Source of the DNA: an uncultured Candidatus Micrarchaeota archaeon
GTDB lineage: Archaea; Micrarchaeota; Micrarchaeia; Micrarchaeales; Micrarchaeaceae
NCBI GenBank assembly: GCA_963741095.1
Contig: CAVUGN010000011.1
Span: forward strand, 1-64,000
Direction: 5' to 3'
Length of the DNA: 64,000 bases
Position 1 is the stretch's first letter. Each line of letters opens with the position of its first letter. This document shows, piece by piece, positions 33,341 to 58,104 of this stretch. The translations under genes were made by a program, and so were the position numbers. Under the pieces are notes generated by a model. It worked only from the letters and a program-made list of their open reading frames with translations. It made no database searches and had not been told where the DNA came from.

Positions 33341-33416
33341 GGGGAGCTACGCTAACCTGGCAGACCATCAGCCTTGGGCGCTGACAATCGGAGTTCAAAT
33401 CTCCGGCTCCCCACCA
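33341..33416 (+). tRNA. tRNA-Pro (TGG), integration target of the island
   Basis: Acceptor ggggagc/gctcccc plus ACCA; anticodon arm tcagc-ctTGGgc-gctga; T-loop ttcaaat. Confidence 0.92.
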
Positions 33417-33475
33417 GGAAAATTATCGACGACAAAATTCGCCTTTTCGACGTATGTTGGAGATGTGGACTGTAT
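33403..33475 (+). repeat. attL-like site (tRNA 3' end plus right arm)
   Basis: ccggctccccaccaggaaaattatcgacgacaaaattcgccttttcgacg; no left arm. Confidence 0.85.
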
Positions 33476-33535
33476 TCAACAAAACTACATGTAAATCTGG
33501 TATAGTTCCAGGTATAGTCTTGAGTATAGCTTATA

Positions 33536-33796
33536 TTATTTCCTATACTCATAATGGCTCACGGCCTTGCCGTACCTGCTACTTATGTTCTTTGAGATGT
33601 AATCAGCGACATCTAACGGCTCCTTGCCGTCCGTGAACCTGGCCTTGACCACGAATCCGCAGTCGCCTTCGGTCAGTAGGACCTCCTTGACGGACTCGAA
33701 CATCATCAGCTTCTCTGCGATCCCGCCGGCGTCTGCGTTCTCTTTTGGCCTTACGAAATAGAGCCCGTACATCGCGCCTATTCTCTTTTTACCCAT
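33536..33796 (-). CDS. Stand-alone Lrp/AsnC ligand-binding (RAM)-like domain, module 1
   Basis: VKEVLLTEGDCGFVVKA resembles RAM motif; identical protein at 38745. Confidence 0.6.
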   Translation of the reverse strand: MGKKRIGAMYGLYFVRPKENADAGGIAEKLMMFESVKEVLLTEGDCGFVVKARFTDGKEPLDVADYISKNISSRYGKAVSHYEYRK

Positions 33797-33811: not shown

Positions 33812-33952
33812 TCATAATCGGTCTATATCAAGCAACTTGACGAACACGCTGTGGCATCTGTCGCATTCCTCGATCACGAACCTGCCGTTCACCACCCGCT
33901 TGCACACCAGCCTTCCTGTTCTGCACCTGCTGCATGCAACGCCGCCGTTCAT
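33812..33952 (-). CDS. 46-aa zinc-ribbon protein (not in ORF track), module 1
   Basis: MNGGVACSRC...EECDRCH; overlaps upstream stop (ATGA); conserved at 39021. Confidence 0.75.
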   Translation of the reverse strand: MNGGVACSRCRTGRLVCKRVVNGRFVIEECDRCHSVFVKLLDIDRL

Positions 33953-34218
33953 CCCTCGATCACCTTACCGTATTCACCGTCCAGTCCTTTCGATATGTAC
34001 GCGGCAGCGTCCTTGGGTTCAGCACCGACGAAAAACTTCACCTTCGCCAGGAACACGCCCTTGTTTTCCATCAAGTTGACTGCCTTCACGCGCTTTAGGG
34101 CAAGGAGCCTTTCCGCAAGACGTTCGCTGACACCGCTCTTCGAATTCCCGAAGTAGAGACGGTGCCAAACCGCATGGCTCGCGCTAACCCTTGTTATTTT
34201 TCCACCCGTATTACACAC
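33949..34218 (-). CDS. Small RAM-like protein, module 1
   Basis: LAERLL..VKAVNLMENKG; conserved copy at 39161. Confidence 0.6.
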   Translation of the reverse strand: MCNTGGKITRVSASHAVWHRLYFGNSKSGVSERLAERLLALKRVKAVNLMENKGVFLAKVKFFVGAEPKDAAAYISKGLDGEYGKVIEG

Positions 34219-34264
34219 CCACTTATTTGCTTACTTTTACATCATCCTGACAAACATGAAAATA

Positions 34265-34465
34265 TCATCTGGACGCTAAAACAGCCCGCGCGGATCCGGA
34301 TCCGTCAAGCAGCATAACCGACCTTCCGGTCCTTTCCAGCTCGCACGCGTTAATGTGCCAAAGATATGCGACTGGATTCTCATGCTCCATACCGCACATC
34401 CAGCACTGGTATGCATTATCGTGCCCTCCCAAAAAGATATCTTTTATTCTTGTTCCCATGCCCAT
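34265..34465 (-). CDS. C2HC zinc-finger small protein, module 1
   Basis: CWMC-x12-H-x3-C; four copies in island. Confidence 0.75.
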   Translation of the reverse strand: MGMGTRIKDIFLGGHDNAYQCWMCGMEHENPVAYLWHINACELERTGRSVMLLDGSGSARAVLASR

Positions 34466-34477
34466 TCTACCACCCCA

Positions 34478-34579
34478 TCAATCATGAGGGTAGGGGGTTG
34501 CACCGCGGAAGCATGGTGATAATGTGGAGGACGAGCTTGCGCTGATCCGTAGAAAATTCTTACTTCCACCCCTGTACAA
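34478..34579 (-). CDS. 33-aa leader ORF MYRGGSKNFLRISASSSSTLSPCFRGATPYPHD (TTG start), module 1
   Basis: First ORF after TATA-like site, GGGTG RBS; homologs have ATG at the same position. Confidence 0.5.
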   Translation of the reverse strand: MYRGGSKNFLRISASSSSTLSPCFRGATPYPHD

Positions 34580-34770
34580 CCTACACACCCATATGATATT
34601 ATGAACTTTGTTGTATATATAAGCAGCCTCGGTTTTTAAGCTGAAGAAACTATAAAAATTGCTATTTTTGTTTAATATTTTTCCAGTTATTCAAATATCA
34701 TATACTGTATAATTAGGAATATAGAGGAGATTAGTAAAGTATAAATATCTGGCTCTATACAATATTATAT

Positions 34771-36192
34771 ATGAAAGAGATACCTTTTGAGGCAAACAAG
34801 GAGCTCGAGCGCCTCAAGAAAGAGTACAAAGCGTACCTTTACGTCAGGATCATAGACGGAAAGTTCTATGTCTACAAAGGGAGCTCAATTTGGGATAAAG
34901 AAACTAAGAAGGTGAGGGGGCTTACCGAGTATCTAGGACGGATAGATGAAAACGGGAAGTTCATAAAGAAGATTTCTAACAAAAAAAAGATCCCGATACA
35001 GACGCTCGTTCAAGGAACTGCTCCGCAAGCCATCCAAACGCTGGTCGACCAGTCTGAGATAAAATTATTGAGAATCCTGAGCATGAATGCAAAGGCAGAT
35101 TTGTCTTTTCTCGGAAAGAAGTTTCTAGGGATCAACTCTTCCGCAACATTCTACAAAGTAAGGCAGCTGAAGGAGAGATATGGCATAAAGGGTATTGCTG
35201 AAATAGATGTTACGAAGCTTGGCTACACTGACTATATAGCTTTTGTGAAATTCGAGGGCGACAAGCCAAGCGCGGATAACATAAGGAAGGCCACTTTGGA
35301 CGAAAGCCAGGTGCAACTAGTGCTTGCTACCAACGGCGAATATGACTTAATAATATACTTCTTAGCCAAGGATAATTTCGATGCATCGGAATTCATATTC
35401 AATTTGAGGTACAAGGAGCATCTGAAGACATGTATATCACAATGGTATTTCTCTCCCATTGACATATGTTATAACTTTATTCCATTAAGAGACCAGTTTT
35501 TCGAGCTGATGAAAGAAAAAGTATGGGTAAAGAGCAGGGAAAGTCAACGCAGATTGGAGGGGCAGCTCACCATCAAGGAGTACAATATACTAAGGGAATT
35601 GAACAGAAATGGTGTCGCAAAGTTCTCAGAAATGGACAAGAAACACGGGCTGGGCGGGGAAGAAACCGCATACATCTACGAAAAGCTTATTGAGAGAGGT
35701 ATACTCAAGAGGATGACAGTAAGTCTTCAGAAAATACCTTTGCAATATAACGCAGTAATCATAATGGGTGTGGTTGACAACAATGGCTTCAGGCGGACTA
35801 GAGACAGGCTGCTGATGGATGTAATAGAGGAGAACGGTACGCCTATCAACAAGTATTCTGTAATGGGAAACATAGGAAACCCTGATGGCGTCATGTTTAT
35901 AATGCCGATAACTCCGAACAACAGGCTCGATGTATTCGAAAGTGAGTTCAAGGAGAGGATAAAAGGTGTGGCACTTAGAACTCTCATAGTCACTGACGTG
36001 CTCGTTGGTTCATTATGTTACAGGAAGTTTGACAACGCAAAGTCTAGGCAATACCGGGCACTGCGGATGGAGGGCAATACAGAGCTATCATTAGCCGATG
36101 TAGACTACGATGAAACAGTTAGAAGGAAGCAAGTTATCAAGAAAGGTGAGGATACAATAGAAGAACTACTCGCCAATAATGAAAATATATAA
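34771..36192 (+). CDS. Tandem Lrp/AsnC-type regulator with N-terminal beta-sheet domain, module 1
   Basis: GKFYVYK..WDK..YLGRI N-domain; two wHTH+RAM units. Confidence 0.8.
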   Translation: MKEIPFEANKELERLKKEYKAYLYVRIIDGKFYVYKGSSIWDKETKKVRGLTEYLGRIDENGKFIKKISNKKKIPIQTLVQGTAPQAIQTLVDQSEIKLLRILSMNAKADLSFLGKKFLGINSSATFYKVRQLKERYGIKGIAEIDVTKLGYTDYIAFVKFEGDKPSADNIRKATLDESQVQLVLATNGEYDLIIYFLAKDNFDASEFIFNLRYKEHLKTCISQWYFSPIDICYNFIPLRDQFFELMKEKVWVKSRESQRRLEGQLTIKEYNILRELNRNGVAKFSEMDKKHGLGGEETAYIYEKLIERGILKRMTVSLQKIPLQYNAVIIMGVVDNNGFRRTRDRLLMDVIEENGTPINKYSVMGNIGNPDGVMFIMPITPNNRLDVFESEFKERIKGVALRTLIVTDVLVGSLCYRKFDNAKSRQYRALRMEGNTELSLADVDYDETVRRKQVIKKGEDTIEELLANNENI

Positions 36193-36248
36193 TGCAGGAA
36201 TAGAATGCAATAACTACTGATGTATCTTACAGAAATTAGCTAATTAAA

Positions 36249-36269
36249 CTACCCTCCTGGTCCTTCCAT
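36249..36269 (-). CDS. Micropeptide MEGPGG
   Basis: TATTTAAG TATA, GGTGA RBS, ATG, stop TAG; one per module. Confidence 0.72.
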   Translation of the reverse strand: MEGPGG

Positions 36270-36318
36270 ATCTTCACCTGTCCAAACATCTCTGAAAAGG
36301 CTTAAATAGCTTGTGTCC
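36270..36318 (-). promoter_or_regulatory. Conserved micropeptide promoter and RBS
   Basis: ACACAAGCTATTTAAGCCTTTTCAGAGATGTTTGGACAGGTGA; also near 41522, 43663, 46675, 52308, 58129. Confidence 0.75.
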
Positions 36319-37104: not shown

Positions 37105-37179
37105 GCATCGTCGAACCATGTTGAACCACGTCGAACGACGTCGTTTCCCAATTGCACTTTTACGACGAAGAACCGGCTC
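37105..37179 (+). repeat. Left att arm with truncated core (ccggctc)
   Basis: catcgtcgaacca...cgtttcccaattgcacttttacgacgaagaaccggctc. Confidence 0.8.
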
Positions 37180-37190
37180 GCGTCGTGCTA

Positions 37191-37511
37191 CTAGATCTCC
37201 AAACCCTCTTTGAGAGCGGCACTGACCAAAGTGATACCTTTTGCCTCCCTCTCGAACTCATTTTTGGTGTAGCTTAAGAAATCCACGGGATAGTCTATCC
37301 CCTGCGATACGTGCCATTCCAAAAGGAGCTTGCTGATCAGCTTCTTTACGGGTTTCCTGATCACAACCAGAAGGTCCACATCGCTGTCCTTCTTTGCCTC
37401 GCCTCTTGCCGAAGAACCGAAGAGTATGATCCGCTCTATTCCGTACGGCTTGGCGACGCTCTCCTTGAAGCCTTTTATCGTTTTTATCAATTGAGGATTG
37501 ACCTTACCCAT
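37191..37511 (-). CDS. Minimal nucleotidyltransferase (MNT)
   Basis: LFGSSARG..DSDVDLLV. Confidence 0.88.
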   Translation of the reverse strand: MGKVNPQLIKTIKGFKESVAKPYGIERIILFGSSARGEAKKDSDVDLLVVIRKPVKKLISKLLLEWHVSQGIDYPVDFLSYTKNEFEREAKGITLVSAALKEGLEI

Positions 37512-37846: not shown

Positions 37847-37977
37847 GTCCTCATAAGAATTTGCCTTAAAAACCTTAATAATGTTTGCAGTTGGGCCACA
37901 TTCATCCAAAATATTTGAATATGTGTTTTTTTTAAGTGAGTCTTATTCCTTCGTAATGACTCCTAACTCGAAACACA

Positions 37978-38021
37978 AACATCGTCGAACCACTTCGAAC
38001 ACCGTCGTTTCCCAATTGCAC
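37978..38021 (+). repeat. Partial left att arm
   Basis: aacatcgtcgaaccacttcgaacaccgtcgtttcccaattgcac. Confidence 0.75.
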
Positions 38022-38550: not shown

Positions 38551-38553
38551 ATG

Positions 38554-38684
38554 ACATCGTCGAACCACGTCGACCAACGATGTTTCTCAATCACACTTTT
38601 ACGTCGAAGGACCGGCTCCCCACCAGGAAAATTATCGACGACAAAATTCGTCTTTTCGATGGATGTTGGAGATGTGGACTGTAT
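38554..38684 (+). repeat. attP-like junction (left arm, core 38612-38622, right arm)
   Basis: cacttttacgtcgaaggaCCGGCTCCCCAccaggaaaattatcgacgacaaaa. Confidence 0.85.
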
Positions 38685-38744
38685 TCAACAAAACTACATG
38701 TAAATCTGGTATAGTTCCAGGTATAGTCTTGAGTATAGCCTATA

Positions 38745-39005
38745 TTATTTCCTATACTCATAATGGCTCACGGCCTTGCCGTACCTGCTACTTATGTTCT
38801 TTGAGATGTAATCAGCGACATCTAACGGCTCCTTGCCGTCCGTGAACCTGGCCTTGACCACGAATCCGCAGTCGCCTTCGGTCAGTAGGACCTCCTTGAC
38901 GGACTCGAACATCATCAGCTTCTCTGCGATCCCGCCGGCGTCTGCGTTCTCTTTTGGCCTTACGAAATAGAGCCCGTACATCGCGCCTATTCTCTTTTTA
39001 CCCAT
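38745..39005 (-). CDS. Stand-alone RAM-like domain, module 2
   Basis: Identical to 33536-33796 protein. Confidence 0.6.
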   Translation of the reverse strand: MGKKRIGAMYGLYFVRPKENADAGGIAEKLMMFESVKEVLLTEGDCGFVVKARFTDGKEPLDVADYISKNISSRYGKAVSHYEYRK

Positions 39006-39164: not shown

Positions 39165-39430
39165 CCCTCGATCACCGTTCCGTAGTCGCCGTCCAGTCCT
39201 TTCGATATGTACGCGGTAGCGTCCTTGGGTTCAGCACCGACGAAAAACTTCACCTTCGCCAGGAACACGCCCTTGTTTTCCATCAGGTTGACTGCCTTCA
39301 CGCGCTTCAGTGCAAGCAGCCTGTCTGCAAGGCGCTCGCTGACACGGCTCTTTGGATTCCCGAAGTAGAACCGGTGCCAAACAGCATGGCTCGCGCTGAC
39401 ACTTGTTACTTTTCCACCCGTATTACACAC
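39161..39430 (-). CDS. Small RAM-like protein, module 2
   Basis: Paralog of 33949-34218. Confidence 0.6.
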   Translation of the reverse strand: MCNTGGKVTSVSASHAVWHRFYFGNPKSRVSERLADRLLALKRVKAVNLMENKGVFLAKVKFFVGAEPKDATAYISKGLDGDYGTVIEG

Positions 39431-39476
39431 CCACTTCTCTTGCTTTCTTTACCTCATTCTGACAAACATGAAGACA

Positions 39477-39674
39477 TCATCTGGATGCGGAAACAGCCCG
39501 CATTCCTAACTCGCCAAGCAGCATCACCGGCCTGCCGGTCCTTTCCAACTCGCAGGCGTTTATGTGCCACAGATATGCAACTGGATTCTCATGCTCCATT
39601 CCGCACATCCAGCACTGGTACATATTATCGTGCCCTCCAAAGAAGATATCCTTTATCCTTGTTCCCATGCCCAT
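39477..39674 (-). CDS. C2HC zinc-finger small protein, module 2
   Basis: CWMC..H...C. Confidence 0.75.
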   Translation of the reverse strand: MGMGTRIKDIFFGGHDNMYQCWMCGMEHENPVAYLWHINACELERTGRPVMLLGELGMRAVSASR

Positions 39675-39686
39675 TCTACCATCCTA

Positions 39687-39788
39687 TCAATCATAAGGGT
39701 AGGGGGTTGCACCGCGGAAGCATGGTGATAATGTGGAGGACGAGCTTGCGCTAATCCATAGAAAATTCTTACTTCCACCCCTGTACAA
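39687..39788 (-). CDS. 33-aa leader ORF, module 2
   Basis: MYRGGSKNFLWISASSSSTLSPCFRGATPYPYD. Confidence 0.5.
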   Translation of the reverse strand: MYRGGSKNFLWISASSSSTLSPCFRGATPYPYD

Positions 39789-39971
39789 CCTACACACCCG
39801 TATAGTATCGCGTCATATCCGGTATTTATTAGATACAGAAGACAGGGCGGTAGTATTGATAAAGCGAAAACATTAAAACATATAAATTTATCATTAAGCG
39901 CTCAATCTTCAATTGTTATACATTAAGGATTTAACAAAAGGAATAAATATCCTCTTATTTGATATAACTAC

Positions 39972-41468
39972 ATGCAAGACGTTCCACCACAGATATCTGC
40001 TGCTTTCGAGAAAGTGAAGAAGACGTACCCGTTCTATGTCTCGCTGAAGAGGATATACGGAAAATATTACGTATACAAAGTGAAGGTCGTCTGGGACCGA
40101 CTAACCAAAAAGACAAAAACAAATTCTGAGTACTTGGGCCGGATAACCAGCGATGGGAAATATAAAAAGAAGAGCATCACACCGAATGATTACCTGAGAA
40201 AGGCCGAGGCACTCATCGCTTCCAAAGGTGGGAAGATAACGTGGGACGGAATTGAGAAAGTCCGGGGTGCAAACGAGCAGATTAAAGAGGAACAGATCGA
40301 GGAAACTGTTGCCGACGAATTGGAAACGAAGATACTGACTATATTGAGTATGAACGGCCGCGCGTCGATACCTTTCATAAGCAAGATGGTTGGTCTTAGC
40401 AATGCTACAACAGATTATCACGTAAAGAAGATCGAAGAGAAATACGGCATCAGATATTTTCCAGAGATAGACGTAGACAAATTAGGTTATGCCAGCTTTA
40501 TGATATCCATAAAATTTGAAGATGAGGTTCCGAGTGCAGAAGAGATTAAAAGAGAGCTTAGCAAATTTCCTGGAGTACAACTTGCAATGGTAACTCATGG
40601 TAGATATGACCTAATAATTCATTTTGTAACCGGGACCGAATATATGCCAAATAGTTATGGATGGGCATCTCAGAATGAAATATATGACCTCCAAAATAAT
40701 GCTTTTAGAGCAAACAAGGCAAAATGGTACGTGTCAACGTTTTACAGAACATATGGATGCGTACCGTTGAGAAACGAATTTTTTGATATGATGAAGAAAA
40801 TAGTGTGGGAAAAAAGCAAAGAGAGCAGGAGACCTAAGCCAAATCAACTTCTTCCTAGGGAGTATTTCGTACTAAAAGAACTAAACTTAGATGGTAGGTG
40901 CGAATTCACAGAAATAGACAATAGATGCAATTTTGATAGGGGTAGATCAGATTACACCTATAAAAGATTAGTTGAAAATAAAACAATAAAACGCATCACG
41001 TTGACAATGCAGAAACCTCCGGTAAAGTATGTGGCAATAATCTATATGGATTTTATAAAAAGAGATGAGTTTTCAAAGAGCAGAGTGAATCTTTTATTAG
41101 ACATAATAGAGCGGCGAACACAAATAAACAAATACGCACTTGTTGGCGATGCGAGCATTCCATATGGTGGATTCTTCATACTGCCGATAACTCAAGATGG
41201 GCTACTAGAAAAAGTCACCGAGCAATTAAAGAGCATAAGCGGCACAAACGTATACGCTCTTGTTGCAAGCGAGATAGTCTTAGGTAGCCTTTGTTATAGA
41301 TTATTTGATAACGCATACTCAAGCCAGCAACGCATGTTGGCTGATGAGTACAAGAAGCATCCAGTTGAAAAAGCGAATTATTTGGGCGTAGCAAAAACCA
41401 AAAAGAGTAGTATAAAATTAGATATAAGGGGATTGCCTACTGACAAATCAACAGATGACGTTACATAA
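39972..41468 (+). CDS. Tandem Lrp-type regulator, module 2
   Basis: Same architecture; ILTILSMNGRASI HTH; VPLRNEFF linker. Confidence 0.8.
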   Translation: MQDVPPQISAAFEKVKKTYPFYVSLKRIYGKYYVYKVKVVWDRLTKKTKTNSEYLGRITSDGKYKKKSITPNDYLRKAEALIASKGGKITWDGIEKVRGANEQIKEEQIEETVADELETKILTILSMNGRASIPFISKMVGLSNATTDYHVKKIEEKYGIRYFPEIDVDKLGYASFMISIKFEDEVPSAEEIKRELSKFPGVQLAMVTHGRYDLIIHFVTGTEYMPNSYGWASQNEIYDLQNNAFRANKAKWYVSTFYRTYGCVPLRNEFFDMMKKIVWEKSKESRRPKPNQLLPREYFVLKELNLDGRCEFTEIDNRCNFDRGRSDYTYKRLVENKTIKRITLTMQKPPVKYVAIIYMDFIKRDEFSKSRVNLLLDIIERRTQINKYALVGDASIPYGGFFILPITQDGLLEKVTEQLKSISGTNVYALVASEIVLGSLCYRLFDNAYSSQQRMLADEYKKHPVEKANYLGVAKTKKSSIKLDIRGLPTDKSTDDVT

Positions 41469-41488: not shown

Positions 41489-41521
41489 TTATCCGTTACC
41501 TCCTGTTCCTCCTCCTTCCAT
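41489..41521 (-). CDS. Micropeptide MEGGGTGGNG
   Basis: Conserved TATA/RBS; stop TAA. Confidence 0.72.
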   Translation of the reverse strand: MEGGGTGGNG

Positions 41522-41723
41522 ATTTTCACCTGTCCAAATATCTCTGAAAAGGCTTAAATAGCTTGTGTCCGTTTGAAATGGGCCAGCGCGAATGCTCGTA
41601 TAAACAACATCGAACCACGTCGGGCGATGTTGTATAATTGTCTTCATCACGGTGCATAGATAAGTATTTATACTTATTCTACATAATATACTTAATGTGA
41701 TGAAGATGACAAACATGAAGACA

Positions 41724-41921
41724 TCATCTGGATGCGGAAACAGCCCGCATTCCTAACTCGCCAAGCAGCATCACCGGCCTGCCGGTCCTTTCCAACTCGC
41801 AGGCGTTTATGTGCCACAGATATGCAACTGGATTCTCATGCTCCATTCCGCACATCCAGCACCGGTACGCATCGCCGCGCTCTCCCAAGAAAATATCTCT
41901 TATCCTTGTCCCTATGCCCAT
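41724..41921 (-). CDS. C2HC zinc-finger small protein, module 3
   Basis: CWMC..H...C. Confidence 0.75.
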   Translation of the reverse strand: MGIGTRIRDIFLGERGDAYRCWMCGMEHENPVAYLWHINACELERTGRPVMLLGELGMRAVSASR

Positions 41922-41937
41922 TCTACCACTCTATCAA

Positions 41938-42033
41938 TCATGAGGGTAGAGGATTGTACTGTGGAAGTGTGGTGAGACTCTGGACAGAGCCTGCGCTGAA
42001 TCTAGAAAAATGCTTACTTCCACCCACATACAT
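41938..42033 (-). CDS. 31-aa leader ORF variant, module 3 (C-terminal half frameshifted relative to other copies)
   Basis: ATG after GGGTGGG; MYVGGSKHFSRFSAGSVQSLTTLPQYNPLPS. Confidence 0.4.
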   Translation of the reverse strand: MYVGGSKHFSRFSAGSVQSLTTLPQYNPLPS

Positions 42034-42242
42034 ATCCTTCCCACCCATGGTAGATGCTATGAAGAAGCTTTTATAAATAGGCTCTCAGAATTTTTAATTA
42101 TATATATCAATACAGGTATGAAATTCCAATAAATCTCATACTATTTAACCATATTAACCATATATAATAGATGGCAGATTAGTATAATGGTTAAATAGAT
42201 AAATTAGAAAGTTATATATATTACCCATTATAAGGCATATGT

Positions 42243-43622
42243 ATGGCAAAACTTCCTGAAAAGGTAGCAGAGACGCTAAATGCACTCAGAAAGGGGAGTA
42301 AGCATTCTTTAAGTGTCAAAATAATCCATGGCGGTTATTACTTGTACGAAGAGGCCACAAAATGGAACAAGCAATTAAAGAAGCAGGATTTCTACTCCGT
42401 ATATCTGGGTAAGATAGATGATGCAGGAATCTTAACACCGCCCCATCACAAGAAAGAGGTTACAAAAACAGAAACCCTTGAAGCGTATATCGCCAAACGG
42501 CAACATGATGAGGCGACAGGGAAAAATCTGCGCTTAAGCAGGATACAGGATTCGATAATCAAGATACTGAGTACTGATGCAAGGATTCCTGTGGAAGAGA
42601 TAAGCACAATGATTGGGATCCCATATTCCACTGTTGCCTATCAGATAAAAAAACTTGAGAAGGATCTTGACATAAAGTATACTCTAGACACTTATGCCGC
42701 TTACAATTTCGGATTTTATAGGTTCATAGTAACAGTAAAATTCAGGGATAAAAAACCAACAACAGAAGAGATAAAGAAAAGTTTGGGCGATGACCCTCAT
42801 ATACAGTTAGTAATGCTTGGCAGGGGCGAATTTGACATTTTCATGTATCTTCTTTTTGATAATACTGTTAATGTAGAGGGTTGGATCTTTGACCTGAGGA
42901 AAAAGGAGGGTCTATCCAAGTACACGGCAGACTGGAATGTATCCTATCTTTTGATAGGCCATGGTATAATACCCCTACGGGATAAGTTTTTTGAGTTGTT
43001 TGAAGATAGGATATGGCACAGGACAAAAGAGATGCCGAGGAAAGGCGCAGACCAGATATACTACCGAGAGTATGCAGTGCTTAAGGAGTTGACCAAGGAT
43101 GGTCTGAAAAGATTCAAGGAAATAGACAAGGATTACAAGCTCAATTCTGGGAGTGCGCAATACACTTACCATGAACTGGTGGCCAAAGGCGCCATTCGCA
43201 GGGTAACCATATCCATGCAGAAAGCTCCGATAAAATACAATGTGATAATACAGATGAAACAAGTGAACATGAAAAGATATATGAAAAGCAGAGAGAAGTA
43301 TTTCTCATACCTTCTAGAAGACCGTGGGGTTCCAACCAACAAAATATCCCTGCTTGGAGATATTGGAACGCCATACGGACAGGTAATTATAATGCCGGTA
43401 TACGAAGACGGAGACCTTGATAGGATAGACGAGGACCTAAAGTCCATAGTCAAGGGAGTGGAGCTAAAGATTACCGTGGTTACCAATATTTTAATAGGAT
43501 CCATATGCTACAACAAGATAGAAGAAAAGAGTACATTTATGTACAACAAACTAACCAGCAAGCAAACCAACCAGATACAGAATAAGAGTCCATACGAAGA
43601 AGACGATGACAGCTCGTACTAA
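42243..43622 (+). CDS. Tandem Lrp-type regulator, module 3
   Basis: IIKILSTDARIPV HTH; IPLRDKFF linker. Confidence 0.8.
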   Translation: MAKLPEKVAETLNALRKGSKHSLSVKIIHGGYYLYEEATKWNKQLKKQDFYSVYLGKIDDAGILTPPHHKKEVTKTETLEAYIAKRQHDEATGKNLRLSRIQDSIIKILSTDARIPVEEISTMIGIPYSTVAYQIKKLEKDLDIKYTLDTYAAYNFGFYRFIVTVKFRDKKPTTEEIKKSLGDDPHIQLVMLGRGEFDIFMYLLFDNTVNVEGWIFDLRKKEGLSKYTADWNVSYLLIGHGIIPLRDKFFELFEDRIWHRTKEMPRKGADQIYYREYAVLKELTKDGLKRFKEIDKDYKLNSGSAQYTYHELVAKGAIRRVTISMQKAPIKYNVIIQMKQVNMKRYMKSREKYFSYLLEDRGVPTNKISLLGDIGTPYGQVIIMPVYEDGDLDRIDEDLKSIVKGVELKITVVTNILIGSICYNKIEEKSTFMYNKLTSKQTNQIQNKSPYEEDDDSSY

Positions 43623-43638
43623 GAATGTATTATACGCT

Positions 43639-43662
43639 TTATGCTCCTCCTCCATCTCCCAT
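43639..43662 (-). CDS. Micropeptide MGDGGGA
   Basis: Conserved TATA/RBS; stop TAA. Confidence 0.7.
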   Translation of the reverse strand: MGDGGGA

Positions 43663-44363
43663 AGTTTCACCTGTCCAAACATCTCTGAAAAGGCTTAAAT
43701 AGCTTGTGTATCTGCAGAGAGGGCATTTCCGGATGTCGCATGAAAGCACTAAATATCTGGACAGGCGCAATAAATACGGGCCGGATGGGCGGAACTGTTA
43801 TCTATCTGCAAGTTCCACCCCCCATCCGACTTTGCGGTTTTTGGCGAGGCGGATGCGGGCGAGCGCGCCATGCCGAGGCGCTGAGCGCCGAGAACGGCGC
43901 CGAGCGTAACAGTGCGGGGTTGCTGCGGTTAAGCTTGAGTTACCTTTGTCCAGCTAAGGCAACGCTTAGCTGCTCAAGCTCATGATGCTGCTCAAGCTGG
44001 TGGTGTTGCTAATGCTGGTTATGCTGCTGTTGGTGTTGTTGCCGCTGTTGCTGCTGTTGCCGTTGCAGGTGTTTGTGCCGGATGCTGCCTGGCTTGCACT
44101 CGCCATCACGTTCGCTCCGCACTCGCTCGCGTGGGCTCGCGGGCAGCAGGCTCTCCGCTCGCTTCGCTCGCTCCGAGCCTGGGGCTTGCCAGGCATATAC
44201 ACAATCAAAGATATGGAAAGCAGGCCGTAAACCGCTGACCTTGGGATGCTTTAGGTATAGCACCCTGCCGACTAGGGCAATCCTGGCTATACTCAACAAG
44301 ACTATACATCGGTCAGATATAGTTTTGGGTATAGTTCCATGGCAGTACGCACTCCCTTACTAT

Positions 44364-44668: not shown

Positions 44669-44857
44669 TTAACTCCTTGAATTCGCATCTATCATGACGC
44701 GCATGCTCCCGGCTGACAGTTCCATCATATCGGATATATAGCTGCCGACCTCGCTCTCCCTGCAGTACGCCTTGCCTTCCACGCTGTCCGTGTGCACCTG
44801 CACGAGAACGCTCCTGTCGTTTCCCAAGATATGCTTTATACTTGCACTCACGCCCAT
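44669..44857 (-). CDS. 62-aa conserved small protein, module 4
   Basis: Paralog at 56049-56225. Confidence 0.65.
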   Translation of the reverse strand: MGVSASIKHILGNDRSVLVQVHTDSVEGKAYCRESEVGSYISDMMELSAGSMRVMIDANSRS

Positions 44858-44866
44858 TCTACAACC

Positions 44867-44971
44867 TTATTGATCGTTAGGGCAGACGATTGTACTGCGG
44901 AAGCATGGTGTGATTATGGAGGGAGAGCCTGCGCTGACCCATAGAAAATCGTTACTTCCACCCCTGTACAT
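44867..44971 (-). CDS. 34-aa leader ORF, module 4
   Basis: ATG after GGGTGG; MYRGGSNDFLWVSAGSPSIITPCFRSTIVCPNDQ. Confidence 0.5.
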   Translation of the reverse strand: MYRGGSNDFLWVSAGSPSIITPCFRSTIVCPNDQ

Positions 44972-45154
44972 CCTTTCCACCCGCATAGTATTATGAATCG
45001 AGTTGTATATATATTTATACTGATATTTATTGTAGATGAGCAGATGATACTACGAATATGGCATTAATAATTTATCAATTAGTATGCTTCGACCAGTGGT
45101 ATCGAGCTAGGTAGGATAATAAGATATTAATATTTATCTATTATAATTATAAAT

Positions 45155-46567
45155 ATGCAAAGGATGCCTGACAGAGTAAGCGAGACATACGAAAGGCTAA
45201 AGAAAGAGATGGCATTTCCCGTGCGGCTACAGGTGAGCGGAGGGCGCTATTACATTTACAAGCAACTGACTGTATGGGACAAGGAAACGAAGAAAGGCAA
45301 ATCTGTAGCCAAGTACCTGGGCAAGATACTTGATGACGGCACTTTCGTGAGGAAGGCGAATCGCAATGCGGCCAAGGATCTTGATGTGGCCAAAGCGGTG
45401 ATAATCTCGTGCGGCGGTACGGTAAAGCTGCCAGAAAAAATCAAAGTGGGAGCAAAGCCGCCCATCATGGAAGAGGTGGATAGGAAAATTCTGATGAATC
45501 TTAGCATGAACTGTAGGATGCCGTTATCTGTAATTGCGAAAAGAGCAGGCATATCGACTACTTCTGCTGTCTATAAGAAAAGGAATCTAGAGAAAAAGTG
45601 CGGTATACGGTATCTTACGTCAATAACTGTGCGCTGGCTTGGATTTTCATATTACGTCGCATTCGTGAAATTCGAGAACGAAAAACCGAACGCGAAAGAG
45701 TTGAAAGAAACGATTGAAAGAGAACAAAGGATCCAGTTAGCATTGATTACCACGGGTAAATACGACTTGATGCTCTACATGGTTGCAGAAGACGACGACA
45801 AGCTGAATGAAGTTGTCACTACGTTGCATGGCAGCGAGACGTTGAAAAAGTATACGAGTAGTTGGATGGTAACAACATATGTAGACAAATACGGCTACGT
45901 GCCATTGAGAGATGAATTTTTCGAACTGCTCAAGAGCAGAGTATGGCAAAGGACAAAAGAAACGCCTCGACCTTCGCGCGGCCAGCTCCTGAAGAGCGAA
46001 TACGCAGTATTAAGGGAGCTGAACAGCAGCGGGGAAGCAAGCTTCTCGAAAATAGATAAAAAATACGATCTAAACAAAGGCAATGCGAGGTATACATACG
46101 AAAAGCTAAAGGAAAGGAGAAAGTACACGTATGAGGAGATTGCTGACAAGAAAGTTCTTTTGAGGAATACACTTACTATGGACAATCTAGCAGTCAGATA
46201 CAACACTATACTCATAATGGAGATACTCAACAGCAAGGAATTCCTTGAGCGAAGGGAGGGTCTATTCAGGTATATAACTGAGGATACGGGTGGTATAGCT
46301 AACAGATTTTCCGCAATAGGTGATATAGTCACACCATATGGTATGATGTTTATTACGCCAATTTTCAAAGAGAATGAATTGGAAGATATAATTGAGGGGT
46401 TGAACGACAGGGTAAAAGGGGTTAAGTTGGACACGCTTTTGGTTACGGGAGTATTAGTGGGTAGCCTCTTCTACAGAAGATTTGACAATGCGCATGCCCA
46501 ACAGTACGCACAATTGATAAGTGAATACAAAATCAGGCCACAAGAAGAATTGATGGAATATGAGTAA
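45155..46567 (+). CDS. Tandem Lrp-type regulator, module 4
   Basis: DRKILMNLSMNCRMPL HTH; GKYDL RAM. Confidence 0.8.
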   Translation: MQRMPDRVSETYERLKKEMAFPVRLQVSGGRYYIYKQLTVWDKETKKGKSVAKYLGKILDDGTFVRKANRNAAKDLDVAKAVIISCGGTVKLPEKIKVGAKPPIMEEVDRKILMNLSMNCRMPLSVIAKRAGISTTSAVYKKRNLEKKCGIRYLTSITVRWLGFSYYVAFVKFENEKPNAKELKETIEREQRIQLALITTGKYDLMLYMVAEDDDKLNEVVTTLHGSETLKKYTSSWMVTTYVDKYGYVPLRDEFFELLKSRVWQRTKETPRPSRGQLLKSEYAVLRELNSSGEASFSKIDKKYDLNKGNARYTYEKLKERRKYTYEEIADKKVLLRNTLTMDNLAVRYNTILIMEILNSKEFLERREGLFRYITEDTGGIANRFSAIGDIVTPYGMMFITPIFKENELEDIIEGLNDRVKGVKLDTLLVTGVLVGSLFYRRFDNAHAQQYAQLISEYKIRPQEELMEYE

Positions 46568-46644: not shown

Positions 46645-46674
46645 TCAGCCTCCTCCCGGTCCTCCACCATCCAT
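46645..46674 (-). CDS. Micropeptide MDGGGPGGG
   Basis: Conserved TATA/RBS; stop TGA. Confidence 0.72.
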   Translation of the reverse strand: MDGGGPGGG

Positions 46675-46785
46675 GATCTCACTGTCAAAACATCTCTGAA
46701 AAAGCTTAAATAGCTTGTGTTTCAGTCGGCAACGGGGAAGCGCCGATAACGATGCATGGTTAACATCAGTCAGTAATGTATATCA

Positions 46786-46912
46786 AACAACATCGAACCA
46801 CGACGACAAACATCGTTTCTCAATTGCACTTTTACGTCGAAGAACCGGCTCCCCACCAAAAATTTATCGACGACAAAATTCGCCTTTTCGACGGATGTTT
46901 GAGATGTGAACT
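46786..46912 (+). repeat. attP-like junction (core 46845-46855)
   Basis: cacttttacgtcgaagaaCCGGCTCCCCAccaaaaatttatcgacgacaaaattcgccttttcgacg. Confidence 0.85.
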
Positions 46913-47002
46913 ATACTCAAAAACTATACCCCGGCCAGATACACTCTCAGATATAATATTAGGTATAGCACTGTGGTGTTCAGACATGACGTTGAGCCTT
47001 AC

Positions 47003-48946
47003 TCACTTAATGGTTTTTTTTAAGTTCTCGATGTACACGGGTTCGATTGGATCTGCCGGTTCAAATCCGAATATTTTGGAGTAGAAGTAAAGTTCCGTGT
47101 CTATGGAGCGTTTTATGCTTTCGGCCTTCCTGAAACTATGCCCCTCCTCATTAAATAGCAAATAAGCCGTACTCAGGCCCTTGTCACGGACTGCCTTGAA
47201 CATCTTCTCGGTCCTGCCTGGTGGGACTACCTTGTCTTCAGTGCCCTGAAAGAATATCACCGGGCATGATAACTTATCCACGGAATTTATGGGGGACCTC
47301 TCTGCGTAGACATCGCGCATTTGCGGATATGGCCCAACAAGTCTTTCCAAATAACCGATTTCAAACTTATTCTTGTCATCGTTTTCAAGTGCTTCGAGAT
47401 CGCTCATGCCGTAATAGCTTGCCCCCGCCTTGAAAAAGTTTCCGAAGGTAAGTGCACAGAGTGCGGTGTAGCCCCCCGCGCAGTTTCCACGGATGATAGC
47501 GCATTTTTCGTTTATCCTACCCTTTTCAGCAAGGTACTTGGCTCCGTTTATGCAATCCTCCATATCAACTATGCCCCACATCCCCTTTATCCTCTCGCGG
47601 TATGCTCGTCCATATCCCGTGCTTCCTCCGTAGTTCACATCAAGCACCGCGAACCCCCTACTTGTCCAGTATTGCGTCTCAAATGACAGGACTGGTTTTG
47701 ATATGCCTGTAGGACCAGCATGACTGAATACGATGAGTGGCGGTGACTCACCTACGGGAGAGACGTAATCCGCATTATGCTGTGGATAGAAGAATGCATG
47801 CGCCGTCGCCTTGCCAGAAGGGAACTCTATCGCCTCCGGAATTGAGATATATCTTGGGTCAATACGAGCTTTTGCCGAACGACGCAGGACATTGAACTTC
47901 CCACTATCCAGATTCAGGCTCACGATTGAAGCTGGCTCTGTTGGGGATGCACCGAGGAATGCCACCATATCTGATGTGACACGCACATCGTTCATCGCAG
48001 TGTATGGTAGTTCCACGTTCTTAATCTTCTTACTCTCGGTGTCAAGTACCGCAAGGTGTGAGTACCCTCCTTTGTTGTAAACACAAACCACTTCCTTTGC
48101 GGATCTGAATCCGTACATCGACATATTGAGTTCGCGCTGCTGCTCCCCGAACTCTGCCTCCATCTTGCATAACTGCTCCGTCTTACCGTCGCGCAAACGG
48201 TACAGGTTCCACCATCCGGTTCTGTCGGATACAAAATAAAGGCTGCCGTCTGGAGACCATTTTGGCTGGAAGATTGACTCGGTTGCAGAGCCAGCAACGC
48301 ATTTTGCATCGTTGATTGACCCGTCATTGCCCAGTGCTCCAACCCAGAGCTCGGACCCGTCCCAAGGCATATTCGGATTGTTCCACGCAATCCACGCAAT
48401 ATGTGAGCAGTCTTTGTCAAGGCATGGAGACGAATAGAAATCGTTTCCAGACGCCAAGATCTTTTCGCTACCCATGTCGCCTGCGTCGAGACCCACTAGC
48501 GAATTGACTATGTTCTTTTCCTCAGTATGGTCCTCCCTGACGCAGATTACCCTGTTGTGTTTCTTGTCAAGCACATAATCCGCATATCTCATCCTTGATT
48601 CTAACGTCATAGGTTTGGGTGGAGAATCACCACGAAGGAGATAGACACGCTGGTCTTTGAAATTAGAGAAACATATCATGTCATCAGACGCCAGATAACT
48701 GCCCCCTCCGTGTTCATGCACTTTGGAACGAACATTGAATTCCCTCCCAATACAATCAATTAGCGTTCCATCATCAGTTCTTTTCACGATTACACTTCTA
48801 CCTTCTTCCACAGGCCGCCCCTCATTCCAGTAGATATCCCCATTGTTTATAGTTATCTCGGAAAGGCGTATTGCTGCCGATGCGATGACGGCGGAAGTTA
48901 TCGGCGACTTCCACGAACCGAAAGGCGCTGTTTTGGTGCTGGACAT
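47003..48946 (-). CDS. S9 (prolyl oligopeptidase/acylaminoacyl peptidase) family protein with Cys at the nucleophile position
   Basis: APFGSWKSPI, VNYGGSTGYG, RGNCAGG, D (GTEDKVV), H (EGHSF). Confidence 0.88.
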   Translation of the reverse strand: MSSTKTAPFGSWKSPITSAVIASAAIRLSEITINNGDIYWNEGRPVEEGRSVIVKRTDDGTLIDCIGREFNVRSKVHEHGGGSYLASDDMICFSNFKDQRVYLLRGDSPPKPMTLESRMRYADYVLDKKHNRVICVREDHTEEKNIVNSLVGLDAGDMGSEKILASGNDFYSSPCLDKDCSHIAWIAWNNPNMPWDGSELWVGALGNDGSINDAKCVAGSATESIFQPKWSPDGSLYFVSDRTGWWNLYRLRDGKTEQLCKMEAEFGEQQRELNMSMYGFRSAKEVVCVYNKGGYSHLAVLDTESKKIKNVELPYTAMNDVRVTSDMVAFLGASPTEPASIVSLNLDSGKFNVLRRSAKARIDPRYISIPEAIEFPSGKATAHAFFYPQHNADYVSPVGESPPLIVFSHAGPTGISKPVLSFETQYWTSRGFAVLDVNYGGSTGYGRAYRERIKGMWGIVDMEDCINGAKYLAEKGRINEKCAIIRGNCAGGYTALCALTFGNFFKAGASYYGMSDLEALENDDKNKFEIGYLERLVGPYPQMRDVYAERSPINSVDKLSCPVIFFQGTEDKVVPPGRTEKMFKAVRDKGLSTAYLLFNEEGHSFRKAESIKRSIDTELYFYSKIFGFEPADPIEPVYIENLKKTIK

Positions 48947-48958
48947 AATTGATCATCT

Positions 48959-50068
48959 CTAAATATGTGACGGCTGAATTCCCGGATATATTGAAAGTGG
49001 ATTGCTCACGAATTCCATCCTCGCAAAGCGTTCAAGTATCTCTTTTATCGAAAGATATATCTCATTGTGGGTCTTCCCCCTCAGATCCCACCTGTAAGCA
49101 GTATTGTTGCAATCGTCTATATGCAGAACCATGTTTGAAGAAACCAGCGGGTTGAACATCCCCTTTTCGCACATCTTTCCGAAAATAGGGCATTCGCTAA
49201 TGCAGTACTTTGGGTTGAAGAATGCTCCTCTAGAAGAGTTCAATAGCATGACCTTTACGCCACCCACATTCAGCGTGAGCTGGACAGACCCGAATCCCTC
49301 TTCGTTGGATACATCAACCTTTTCAATTTCGTAATCGTGCCTTATCATATTGAGAACTTCTTCGGAATTTATATAATTCCCTCTCCAGTATTCGATAGGC
49401 GAGAGACTCGAATATTTGCCAATACCTCCGTGTGCCCCGTTTGTGGCTATGTACTCATCCTGTATAAAGAGGTTGAACAGTTTCAACGAGAAACCAGACT
49501 TGGCCGCAAACTCGATCATACTGTTTACCTCGCCCATGGTCTGTTTTATTAGTACCATATTTATCCTAGTCTTTATGTCGCGTTCCGAGAGTTCCGATAG
49601 TAGCCTGCGGGTTTTGTCGTTAAGCACCTTGCAAATCCCCTCTTTTGGCTGGTTTGATGTAGAATCCAAGGAAAATTGTACGGATATCCGGTCCTTATGC
49701 CTCTCCAAAACATCCATATGTCGCTCGAGATTCTTTCCGTTAGTTATGACTACAAAATTAATTTCCGGATGAAGGTCCAATATCTTTTCAACCTCATTGA
49801 AAAGCCACTCTACGAGAGTCGGTTCGCCCCCACTGATCTTGAATTTGTCGAAGCCCAGATCGTAGGCCGCTGTAACAGTGGAGAAGAACTCTTCACCCGA
49901 CATATTCGCCCCGATGCTCTTGTTCTGCCCAAAGGGGTAGCAATAGCCGCACTTGTTATTGCATTCCTTTATTACTGCAATGGAGAAATATAACCCTCCC
50001 GCGATTTTTCTTAATTCGTTGTTCTGCACTCTCGTGGCAGATTCCGCTTTCGATGCTTGTTTCTCCAT
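48959..50068 (-). CDS. Radical SAM enzyme (MoaA-like core, Cys-rich C-terminus)
   Basis: CNNKCGYC, SGGEP, ITNG; C-terminal C-x3-C-x6-C..C. Confidence 0.85.
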   Translation of the reverse strand: MEKQASKAESATRVQNNELRKIAGGLYFSIAVIKECNNKCGYCYPFGQNKSIGANMSGEEFFSTVTAAYDLGFDKFKISGGEPTLVEWLFNEVEKILDLHPEINFVVITNGKNLERHMDVLERHKDRISVQFSLDSTSNQPKEGICKVLNDKTRRLLSELSERDIKTRINMVLIKQTMGEVNSMIEFAAKSGFSLKLFNLFIQDEYIATNGAHGGIGKYSSLSPIEYWRGNYINSEEVLNMIRHDYEIEKVDVSNEEGFGSVQLTLNVGGVKVMLLNSSRGAFFNPKYCISECPIFGKMCEKGMFNPLVSSNMVLHIDDCNNTAYRWDLRGKTHNEIYLSIKEILERFARMEFVSNPLSIYPGIQPSHI

Positions 50069-50089
50069 CTTTTCGCCCATCAGATAAGC

Positions 50090-50368
50090 TCAACTTTCGC
50101 CCATCGATACGAATGCCCTGCCAATGCCCCGCGATGCCTGCTCTTTTATGTCCTTCAACTTATTTCTATCCCTGTAGAATCTGACCTCAGCCACGCAGTC
50201 GCCATTGCTGTCGTAAAGAGGGATGTGCTGCCTGCGCCATATGTCAATCAACCTCTCCGCAAGGTCGCCATTTCCGCCTTTTAATTGCAGGAACACGGTC
50301 CTGCACAATCCTTTTCTGCCGCTTCCGCCGGATCGCGCCAGCTTGTTAGTTGCCAATTTTCCACCCAT
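50090..50368 (-). CDS. Small conserved protein (distant RAM-like), module 5
   Basis: Paralog of 44364. Confidence 0.6.
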   Translation of the reverse strand: MGGKLATNKLARSGGSGRKGLCRTVFLQLKGGNGDLAERLIDIWRRQHIPLYDSNGDCVAEVRFYRDRNKLKDIKEQASRGIGRAFVSMGES

Positions 50369-50424
50369 TTGTTTACACCCACTTTTCCTGCTTTCTTTAC
50401 CTCATTCTGTCAAACATGAAGATA

Positions 50425-50622
50425 TCATTTGGGTGCGGAAACAGCCCGCATCCCTAAATCGTCAAGCAGCATAACTGGTCTGCCGGTCCTTTCCAATTCA
50501 CATGCGTTTATGTGCCACAGATACGCGACTGGATTCTCATGTTCCATGCCGCACATCCAGCACTGGTACACATCGCCGCTCCCTCCAAAGAAAATATCCC
50601 TTATCCTTGTTCCCATTCCCAT
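50425..50622 (-). CDS. C2HC zinc-finger small protein, module 5
   Basis: CWMC..H...C. Confidence 0.75.
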   Translation of the reverse strand: MGMGTRIRDIFFGGSGDVYQCWMCGMEHENPVAYLWHINACELERTGRPVMLLDDLGMRAVSAPK

Positions 50623-50633
50623 TCTACCACTTA

Positions 50634-50735
50634 TCAATCATAAGGGTAGGGGGTTGCACCGCGGAAGCATGGTGATAATGTGGAGGACGAGCTTGCGCTG
50701 ATCCGTAGAAAATTCTTACTTCCACCCCTGTACAA
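50634..50735 (-). CDS. 33-aa leader ORF, module 5
   Basis: Nearly identical to module 1 copy. Confidence 0.5.
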   Translation of the reverse strand: MYRGGSKNFLRISASSSSTLSPCFRGATPYPYD

Positions 50736-50918
50736 CCTACACACCCATATGATATTATGAAGTCCAAAGTATATATAAGTAAACGAGCTCCTGCATTACA
50801 CGATACTGCACTTCATAGAATTCTACACCGATTTACTCGCATTTATCAATCAATATAACCCTTTATATTAACCTTATAATAGTAAAGCTTAAATATCATA
50901 TAACCTTATAATATCATT

Positions 50919-52265: not shown

Positions 52266-52307
52266 TTAACCTCCGCCCCCTCCGCCTCCGCTTCCTCCTC
52301 CGTCCAT
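52266..52307 (-). CDS. Micropeptide MDGGGSGGGGGGG
   Basis: Conserved TATA/RBS; all four Gly codons used; stop TAA. Confidence 0.72.
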   Translation of the reverse strand: MDGGGSGGGGGGG

Positions 52308-52386
52308 AATATCACTGTTTAAACATCTCTAGAAAAGCTTAAATGGATTGTGTCTGTTTGAACTTGGCTAGCGCACATGTTTGTGC

Positions 52387-52515
52387 AAACATCGTCGAAC
52401 CACGTCGACCAACGTTGTTTCTCAATCACACTTTTACGATGATTGACCGGCTCCCCAGAGAAAAATTTATCGACGACAAAATCCGCCTTTTCGACGAATG
52501 TTTGAGATTTGAACT
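52387..52515 (+). repeat. attP-like junction (core 52447-52457)
   Basis: aacatcgtcgaaccacgtcgacc...CCGGCTCCCCAgagaaaaatttatcgacgacaaaa. Confidence 0.85.
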
Positions 52516-52559
52516 CAGAGTAGTAATCCTACACATCTTTGGGCGTGAACCCAAGGCAA

Positions 52560-55314: not shown

Positions 55315-55325
55315 TTGGGTGGCAG

Positions 55326-55718: not shown

Positions 55719-55739
55719 CTTTTCACCCAATAGATAAGC

Positions 55740-58025: not shown

Positions 58026-58104
58026 ACACCATGAAAAATACTGTGCAGAACATATATGATTACTACCATGAATGCGCTTTTCAGTCGCCATTAATCATAA
58101 CGCT

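Follow-up and report, generated by a model that had tools for sequence, protein, structure and literature searches.

A lineage-specific family of probable Lrp-type regulators in Micrarchaeota, with two Lrp-like units predicted in one chain and an N-terminal domain shared with IS1634-family transposases

Introduction

What kind of protein joins two Lrp-like units to a further, basic domain in a single chain, and what might a very small archaeal genome do with many copies of it? The question is raised by a 64,000-nucleotide stretch of DNA (the window) on contig C11 (CAVUGN010000011.1; assembly GCA_963741095.1) of an uncultured Candidatus Micrarchaeota archaeon, the genome of which measures 1.08 Mb and is 94% complete. 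The window carries six paralogous plus-strand open reading frames (ORFs) of 441-498 aa, the first of which, paralog 1, supplies the residue numbers used below. Micrarchaeota are small-genome DPANN archaea. Lrp/AsnC proteins are the best-studied archaeal regulators, and their dimer is the minimal DNA-binding unit.

We report a lineage-specific family of probable regulators of the Lrp type that is new in its three-part architecture, consisting of a basic N-terminal domain (N-domain), a variable linker and a body of two Lrp-like units. Databases already name family members Lrp/AsnC regulators. No description of the three-part architecture or of a transposase link was found in literature searches, and the words fused, fusion and tandem are not used in a 2010 Lrp/AsnC review.

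Two Lrp-like units in one predicted chain

In the AlphaFold2 (AF2) model of the full chain (predicted local distance difference test score, pLDDT, 87.1; predicted template-modelling score, pTM, 0.74), two winged helix-turn-helix (wHTH) plus beta-alpha-beta-beta-alpha-beta units follow the N-domain. The layout runs from the N-domain (1-66) over a disordered stretch (70-90) to a wHTH (94-145) and a RAM domain (153-235), and then, beyond a helix (243-250), to a second wHTH (268-319) and a RAM-like domain (326-413). The best solved fold match is NirDL (PDB 4ch7; Foldseek E 2e-12). With VIA, model residues 94-415, which span both units, aligned to it over 271 residues (Z 16.8, root-mean-square deviation 4.4 Å), compared with Z 9-9.8 over 137-150 residues for single Lrp chains. 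The superposition of the predicted single chain on the two units of NirDL is a property of the model only.

A family profile built from 30 sequences matched solved proteins through unit 1 only, with FL11 (PH1519) at E 3.3e-17 and LrpA at E 7e-13, and the FL11 match takes in the RAM part (profile positions 108-224); unit 1 thus resembles FL11, LrpA and LysM over wHTH and RAM by both profile and fold. Pfam recognised an HTH (HTH_AsnC-type or HTH_24) at about residues 85-150, above the cut-off in three of the six paralogs and slightly below it in the others, together with a weak MarR-like HTH at about 260-320. The NCBIfam LysM/LrpA matches (E 1e-7 to 6e-13) were all under the cut-off. When the two units were compared with each other (hhalign), 57 wHTH columns were aligned at about 32% identity (probability 67%, E 5e-5). 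The segment that joins them is the best-conserved part of the protein, with a mean pairwise identity of 0.48 among the 30 sequences, and is invariant at P238, L239, R240, F243, F244 and W252 in the six paralogs.

The AsnC-type winged HTH and the RAM domain that mark Lrp/AsnC regulators are both present, and a single-chain Lrp pseudo-dimer is a well-supported prediction because the AF2 model, the NirDL match over both units and the profile similarity of unit 1 to unit 2 agree. An initial annotation of the locus had proposed two wHTH and RAM units with a conserved joining segment, which the model, the NirDL match and the invariant residues bear out. It had further proposed a single-chain pseudo-dimeric Lrp with an extra DNA-binding domain: the pseudo-dimer and the extra, beta-rich N-terminal domain stand on fold and profiles, while DNA binding by that domain can be put forward only conditionally.

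In archaeal Lrp/AsnC proteins, DNA is expected to be bound by two wHTHs seated on a RAM-RAM core, and the same may hold here. The present proteins differ in that the unit is one chain with two diverged halves and an additional N-terminal domain, and the two DNA-reading heads are therefore unlike. A covalent hetero-pseudo-dimer leaves its heads free to diverge, and should consequently read asymmetric operators.

The match to NirDL raises the alternative that the proteins are not regulators at all and belong to the sirohaem decarboxylase-like enzymes of the fused AhbA/AhbB type (PDB 4ch7, 4czc), which likewise place two Lrp-like units in a single chain. NirDL is the top structural match, weak NCBIfam AhbA matches occur in two of the six paralogs, and PMC4145669 states that AhbA and AhbB have the Lrp fold in common and occur as a fusion in most archaea possessing them. 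The same source describes NirDL as an enzyme whose cleft is opened and which bears an HxYxR motif; the motif is absent from all eight regulator sequences checked, sequence identity to NirDL is 14%, and NirDL lacks the additional N-terminal domain. The AhbA matches reach 14.5 and 15.6 bits where 140 are required, the other four paralogs have none, the wHTH and linker parts are basic, and one biosynthetic step hardly calls for twelve diverged paralogs in a genome of 1.08 Mb. Given the absent motif, the AhbA scores far below cut-off and the twelve paralogs, we regard an enzymatic role as barely conceivable.

The N-terminal domain

All six paralogs begin with the N-domain of about 65 aa that the initial annotation had recognised, with 11 invariant columns within residues 1-62 (M1, P5, Y33, Y35, W41, K47, Y54, L55, G56, I58 and G62). 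The proposed consensus, G(K/R)(Y/F)YVYK-x4-WDK-x2-KK-x6-YLG(R/K)I-x2-DG, fits the alignment with small departures, namely WDR or WNK in two copies and NG or AG in two, and the positions assigned to the domain, 34771-35000, correctly correspond to residues 1-76 of paralog 1. Over their full lengths, the other five window copies share 31-40% identity with paralog 1, and 50 columns are invariant across the six. The AF2 model of the N-domain (pLDDT 86.7) shows a helix packed on three long antiparallel strands and a short fourth one. The domain is basic in paralog 1 (isoelectric point, pI, 9.6; net charge +6), and in none of the six is any other part of the protein as basic (N-domain pI 9.4-10.0, net +4 to +12). 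Between 18 and 46 aa of linker separate it from the body in these six.

A 40-sequence N-domain alignment combined the six copies of the window with 34 loci from this genome and related ones (locus of genome G029 excluded). Its profile matched 857 proteins at E<=1e-3 in a library of 1.84 billion, which places the N-domain family far beyond chance; in the present genome, exactly the 12 family genes were matched at E<=1. Among the 150 matches listed of the 857, 127 have an Lrp part, 21 are unclassifiable fragments and two are transposases (P0034 and P0156). Tandem N-domains (two stretches) occur in five of these 150, and in the three that were read (P0013, P0093 and P0148) they lie ahead of the double-Lrp body. 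Other relatives have no N-domain (P0005, P0010 and P0021, which start at MGRV), and it is likewise missing from open frames of 411 and 435 aa. Since variants exist both without the N-domain and with two of them, it is a separable module.

P0156, a full-length protein of 478 aa, carries the N-domain at residues 4-69 (75.5 bits, E 2.6e-16 in the 1.84-billion-protein library) and scores 143 bits against the NCBIfam IS1634 model, for which the cut-off is 100, while the transposase fragment P0034 reaches 97.5 bits with the N-domain profile. In an independent search, 23 of 201 genomes of the class had matches to IS1634 transposases, and the ORFs concerned open with the N-domain pattern. One of these transposases, L051, was matched by the N-domain profile at 35.7 bits (hmmsearch, E 5e-4 with Z set to 1.84e9). 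With hhalign, the 40-sequence alignment was matched to six transposase N-termini at a probability of 97.5% (E 6e-12), at 95.6% (E 1.3e-8) after removal of the closest transposase sequence, and at 95.3% when only two WDK-type transposases were used. The IS1634 cut-off (NF033559) is also passed by L051, L043 and L055, and DDE_Tnp_1 is present in L051, L043 and L044.

On the strength of the profile scores, the hhalign probabilities of 95-97.5% and the passing of the IS1634 cut-off by P0156, we treat the IS1634 link as a tested homology, and the N-domain is homologous to the N-terminus of DDE transposases of related Micrarchaeota, at least for a subset of the IS1634 family. Common to regulators and transposases is a strand-turn-strand pattern of about 50-65 aa, Y.Y....WDK..K.....Y(L/I)G, and some of the transposases (P0034, P0156, L051) share the leading helix as well. 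The difference lies in the DDE catalytic domain, which was not found by Pfam or NCBIfam in any of the six paralogs. Reuse of protein modules from mobile elements in regulators is known mostly from eukaryotes, and a domain shared with IS1634 transposases in a regulator would be a clear prokaryotic case. The same comparison is a first point of entry to the so far uncharacterised N-terminal region of these transposases.

Two intact-looking insertion sequence (IS) elements of the IS1634 family were seen in related genomes, both encoding a transposase with the regulator-type N-domain: L051:151-1683 (genome G169), with terminal inverted repeats of 32 nt (91%), and L043:350-2034 (genome G084), with terminal inverted repeats of 24 nt (100%).

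These elements bear on a second alternative, in which the proteins regulate transposition or are relics of it, and their transposase-type head, fused to a sensor, competes with IS1634-type transposases for IS ends or binds solo ends or miniature inverted-repeat transposable elements as dispersed operators. The N-domain is indeed common to IS1634 transposases, with high scores in P0034 and P0156, elements with terminal inverted repeats of 24-32 nt exist in related genomes, and two of the four N-domain places outside the order, in a class-level sample, are transposase ORFs. The present genome, however, has 12 regulators and no NF033559 match at 94% completeness, nothing close to the ends of the two examined IS elements was found in it, and the regulator family keeps conserved neighbours that are not IS. 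We consider this alternative improbable.

The initial annotation had also pointed to SSV1-type integrases through a YYVY...YLG motif; the kinship with IS1634 transposases was upheld by hmmsearch and hhalign, and that with the integrases extends to the motif level only. The SSV1-type integrase N-domain has G(K/R)YYVY ... Y(L/V)G in the same order, and comparison of the N-domain alignment with seven SSV-type integrases (hhalign) gave 30 columns at a probability of 5-8% (P about 0.004), a score reached by one of 200 column shuffles. PF07935 (the SSV1-type integrase N-domain) matched neither the genome at E<=1 nor the 40 N-domains at E<=10, PF16795 (the SSV-type catalytic domain) matched nothing in the genome, and the SSV1 integrase N-terminus as a query retrieved six close relatives and nothing further. 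The sequence comparison hints faintly that the two domains may be related.

Structural likeness to integrase-type domains was not seen: Foldseek against the PDB, VIA and the viral predicted folds of BFVD returned no integrase among the matches. Integrase, AP2 and arm-binding domains are absent from the fold-match lists of the N-domain, an absence that does not exclude them. The N-domain profile had no match among PDB sequences at E<=10, Pfam assigned no consistent family to the 40 N-domains, PF20586 had no match in the genome, and tblastn of the N-domain against phage records gave chance-level matches only (best E 0.04). In the ESM Atlas, only unnamed clusters were found for the N-domain, the nearest named one being DUF6788 (0.77).

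A likeness to SSV1 integrase, if real, would favour a third alternative, in which the N-domain is a protein-protein oligomerisation module that joins pseudo-dimers and replaces or adds to RAM-mediated Lrp octamers. The SSV1-type N-terminal domain is described as a dimerisation domain in PMC9608457, ordinary Lrp proteins are said to act as multimers of dimers in PMC2995911, and some members (five of the 150 matches listed) have tandem N-domains. Against this stand the weakness of the SSV-type likeness (probability 8%) and the charge of the N-domain, the most basic region in each of the six paralogs, which agrees better with contact to nucleic acid. An oligomerisation module is unlikely on balance, though it deserves to be kept in mind.

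Distribution and age of the family

A profile search of the contigs found 12 full-length family copies in the whole genome (E 2e-185 to 1e-140), six of them outside the window on contigs C1, C5 and C10. In a sample of 401 genomes of the phylum, with tallies that include the unpublished genomes G029 and G197, the full-length profile at E<=1e-10 matched 84 of 93 genomes of one family (f1) and 75 of 83 of a second family of the same order (f2). The best E-values are mostly far stronger in these two families, those of other families ranging from about 1e-11 to 1e-44. Searches with the N-domain alone gave matches in 18 of the 21 f1 genomes and six of the 13 f2 genomes. Outside the order, the class-level sample yielded it in three genomes and at four places, which are the two transposase ORFs mentioned above and two short unassignable frames. 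As far as the searched genomes show, the family does not extend beyond a single order of Micrarchaeota.

A quick maximum-likelihood tree of 40 proteins mixes the 12 copies of this genome among copies from other genomes, with 10 label changes where shuffling gives 10.5 on average. It follows that the paralogs are old and did not arise in a recent local burst. Twelve diverged paralogs in 1.08 Mb suggest that the family has a large share in the regulation of this uncultured, host-dependent lineage, where regulation is almost unknown.

The att-like repeats

The window also contains an array of repeats resembling phage attachment (att) sites, and the initial annotation had suggested that the N-domain might recognise the att arms and couple ligand sensing to excision. 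Further copies of the last 14 nt of the tRNA-Pro gene, together with about 65 nt downstream of it, lie at 38.6, 46.8 and 52.4 kb, and partial ones at 37.1 and 58.3 kb. At the junctions, CGTCGA repeats flank the tRNA-Pro 3' end and are oppositely oriented on its two sides. Taken at full strength, the suggestion would make the six regulators proteins of an integrated element, acting much like directionality factors. The junctions are real features of the window, CGTCGA is enriched (56 observed against 34.2 +/- 6.4 expected, 56 being reached in none of 100 shuffles) and clustered on both sides of them, three junctions lie 140-230 nt beyond the stops of paralogs 4, 5 and 6, and the G+C content of the region is lower (0.41-0.48). 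Sites selected by archaeal Lrp-type proteins in SELEX contain TCGA-type half-sites, according to PMC2715240.

The regulator family is nevertheless not tied to this array. All eight genomic matches to the att-like repeat fall in one region of C11, with none near the genes on C1, C5 and C10; a single Phage_integrase match (tyrosine recombinase) was found, on C9, and no SSV-type integrase match; and the interleaving of the 12 paralogs with those of other genomes marks them as old chromosomal lineages. The tested relatives of the N-domain are, moreover, transposases and not integrases. No consistent linkage of the family to att sites and a cognate integrase was thus found, and the suggested att-arm recognition and coupling to excision give way before the regional repeats, the six genes elsewhere and the age of the paralogs. 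We judge a role in excision highly improbable.

Between the partial att-like copies at 36.4-38.6 kb, we observed three toxin-antitoxin pairs, one per interval, in a cassette-like arrangement: a PIN pair, a HEPN/nucleotidyltransferase pair and HicA with its partner. No integrase lies nearby.

Proposed function

From the architecture, homologies, copy number, distribution and conserved gene neighbours described here, we conclude that these proteins are probably lineage-specific transcription regulators in which a covalent Lrp pseudo-dimer is joined by a linker to a basic, IS1634-type N-domain. In the mechanism that we infer, the PLR..FF..W segment would hold the two diverged Lrp/AsnC units together, and the two unlike wHTHs of one chain would contact an asymmetric operator as an Lrp homodimer does a palindrome. 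A small ligand could be bound by the internal RAM pair, or this pair could join with stand-alone RAM-like mini-proteins encoded divergently upstream, in the manner of FL11 and DM1. By analogy with end recognition by transposase N-termini, the basic N-domain might add a third nucleic-acid contact; alternatively, it may link chains. Likely targets would be local: the operon of divergent small ORFs, the promoter of the regulator gene itself and that of a convergent Gly-rich micro-ORF, which is strongly conserved.

Several results weigh against parts of this account. For the body, Pfam AsnC_trans_reg (RAM) was below the cut-off in all six paralogs (best 22.8 against 25), the RAM of unit 2 is visible in the predicted structure and has no counterpart in the sequence searches, and the best structural relative, NirDL, is an enzyme and not a regulator. 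For the N-domain, Foldseek found nothing significant in the PDB (best E 0.15), VIA over 48,161 chains reached Z 5.2 at best (the amino-terminal domain of GluA1 and BLIP-like proteins), and the best viral predicted fold in BFVD (E 0.051) was not significant; a DNA-binding role of the domain rests on charge and analogy, because it has no significant structural neighbour. The variants without an N-domain imply that it is dispensable for some members. As regards IS1634, hhalign against three classical GKVKQ-type N-termini by themselves gave a probability of 14% (P 0.0019), in the same register. The ends of the L051 and L043 elements were found at no place in this genome at <=4 mismatches and at two chance-like places at 6, and literature searches found no published function for the IS1634 N-terminus that precedes the DDE domain.

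Conserved neighbours and other features of the locus

The coordinates of the regulators, their parts and their neighbours are collected in Table 1.

Table 1. Regulator genes, parts of paralog 1 and neighbouring features, in positions of the window
Feature	Position	Strand	Description
Paralog 1	34771-36192	+	473 aa; N-domain, linker, two Lrp-like units; from ORF, alignment and AF2 model
N-domain of paralog 1	34771-34974	+	residues 1-68; helix 6-19, strands 22-28, 31-42, 47-58, 64-66
Variable linker	34975-35040	+	residues about 69-90; pLDDT under 50
Lrp unit 1	35041-35478	+	wHTH (helices 94-137, strand 139-145) and RAM (153-235)
Conserved inter-unit segment	35479-35568	+	residues 237-266; IPLRDQFFELMKEKVW...
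Lrp unit 2	35569-36015	+	wHTH (268-319) and RAM-like alpha/beta domain (326-413)
Paralog 2	39972-41468	+	498 aa
Paralog 3	42243-43622	+	459 aa
Paralog 4	45155-46567	+	470 aa
Paralog 5	50919-52244	+	441 aa
Paralog 6	56571-58025	+	484 aa
Small RAM-like ORF	33536-33796	-	86 aa; upstream of and divergent from paralog 1; identical copy at 38745-39005
Second small RAM-like ORF	33949-34218	-	89 aa
Small ORF of second type	50090-50368	-	92 aa; upstream of paralog 5; paralogous to 55740-56006; repeat family D4
Small ORF	55740-56006	-	88 aa; upstream of paralog 6
~70-nt element after paralog 1	36245-36316	-	MEGPGG; repeat families D9/D12
~70-nt element after paralog 2	41489-41568	-	MEGGGTGGNG
~70-nt element after paralog 3	43630-43709	-	MGDGGGA
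~70-nt element after paralog 4	46649-46720	-	MDGGGPGGG
~70-nt element after paralog 5	52282-52353	-	MDGGGSGGGGGGG
~70-nt element after paralog 6	58095-58174	-	MDGGASG, read by eye
~400-nt upstream blocks	34218-34621, 39427-39830, 41674-42077, 44826-45013, 50375-50777		upstream of regulators
Small Cys-rich ORF	34265-34465	-	within an upstream block
tRNA-Pro	33341-33416	+	context, not general to the regulator family
att-like junctions	33341-33482, 37112-37193, 37976-38021, 38551-38691, 46784-46923, 52386-52526, 58251-58332		
Peptide-modification-like clusters	47003-50080, 52560-55730	-	two clusters

Two kinds of neighbour accompany the regulator genes. Relatives of the small ORFs adjoin regulators, on the upstream side, at 13 of 28 loci from other genomes, and the resulting arrangement resembles that of FL11 and DM1 in Pyrococcus, hetero-assemblies of which are documented in PMC2995911. 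The RAM-likeness of the mini-proteins is modest (Pfam AsnC_trans_reg E 0.037; in register with the unit 1 RAM by hhalign, probability 38%, E 3.4e-4), and in contrast to FL11 and DM1, a pairing here is suggested by gene order.

The second neighbour is an element of about 70 nt, downstream of and convergent to the regulator, which adjoins 10 of the 12 family genes in this genome. Read on the minus strand, it comprises a TATA-like box, a Shine-Dalgarno (SD)-like GGTGA or AGTGA, an ATG and a Gly-rich ORF of 5-13 codons. Such micro-ORFs were flagged by script at nine of the 12 genes and read by eye at the other three. With a stricter promoter-plus-SD filter, a micro-ORF was found at 6 of 27 loci in other genomes, compared with none in three 500-nt control stretches for each. 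The promoter-like sequence of the micro-ORF is better conserved than the regulators themselves. These conserved partners suggest local targets of the regulators and an FL11/DM1-like pairing.

A bolder reading would combine a domesticated IS1634 head, a single-chain Lrp sensor, the RAM mini-proteins and the micro-ORF into a self-contained, many-copy sensing cassette that serves as the main transcription control of the order, with the micro-peptide or its translation as a signal or regulated output; we consider it rather doubtful.

The ~70-nt elements with their micro-ORFs also follow regulator genes on contigs C5 and C10. The Gly codons of the micro-ORFs differ at the third position, and some regulator genes carry two or three of the elements in a row. 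The blocks of about 400 nt upstream of several regulators share 73-92% DNA identity, cover the small Cys-rich ORF and an intergenic stretch, and are conserved far beyond the regulator genes, whose proteins share 31-40% identity. Their conservation could be due to gene conversion, or to a constrained RNA or promoter; in the 33-59 kb region, Rfam recognised tRNA-Pro only. Finally, the two peptide-modification-like clusters contain radical SAM (S-adenosylmethionine) and radical SAM/SPASM enzymes, an S9 prolyl-oligopeptidase-type peptidase and small unannotated ORFs.

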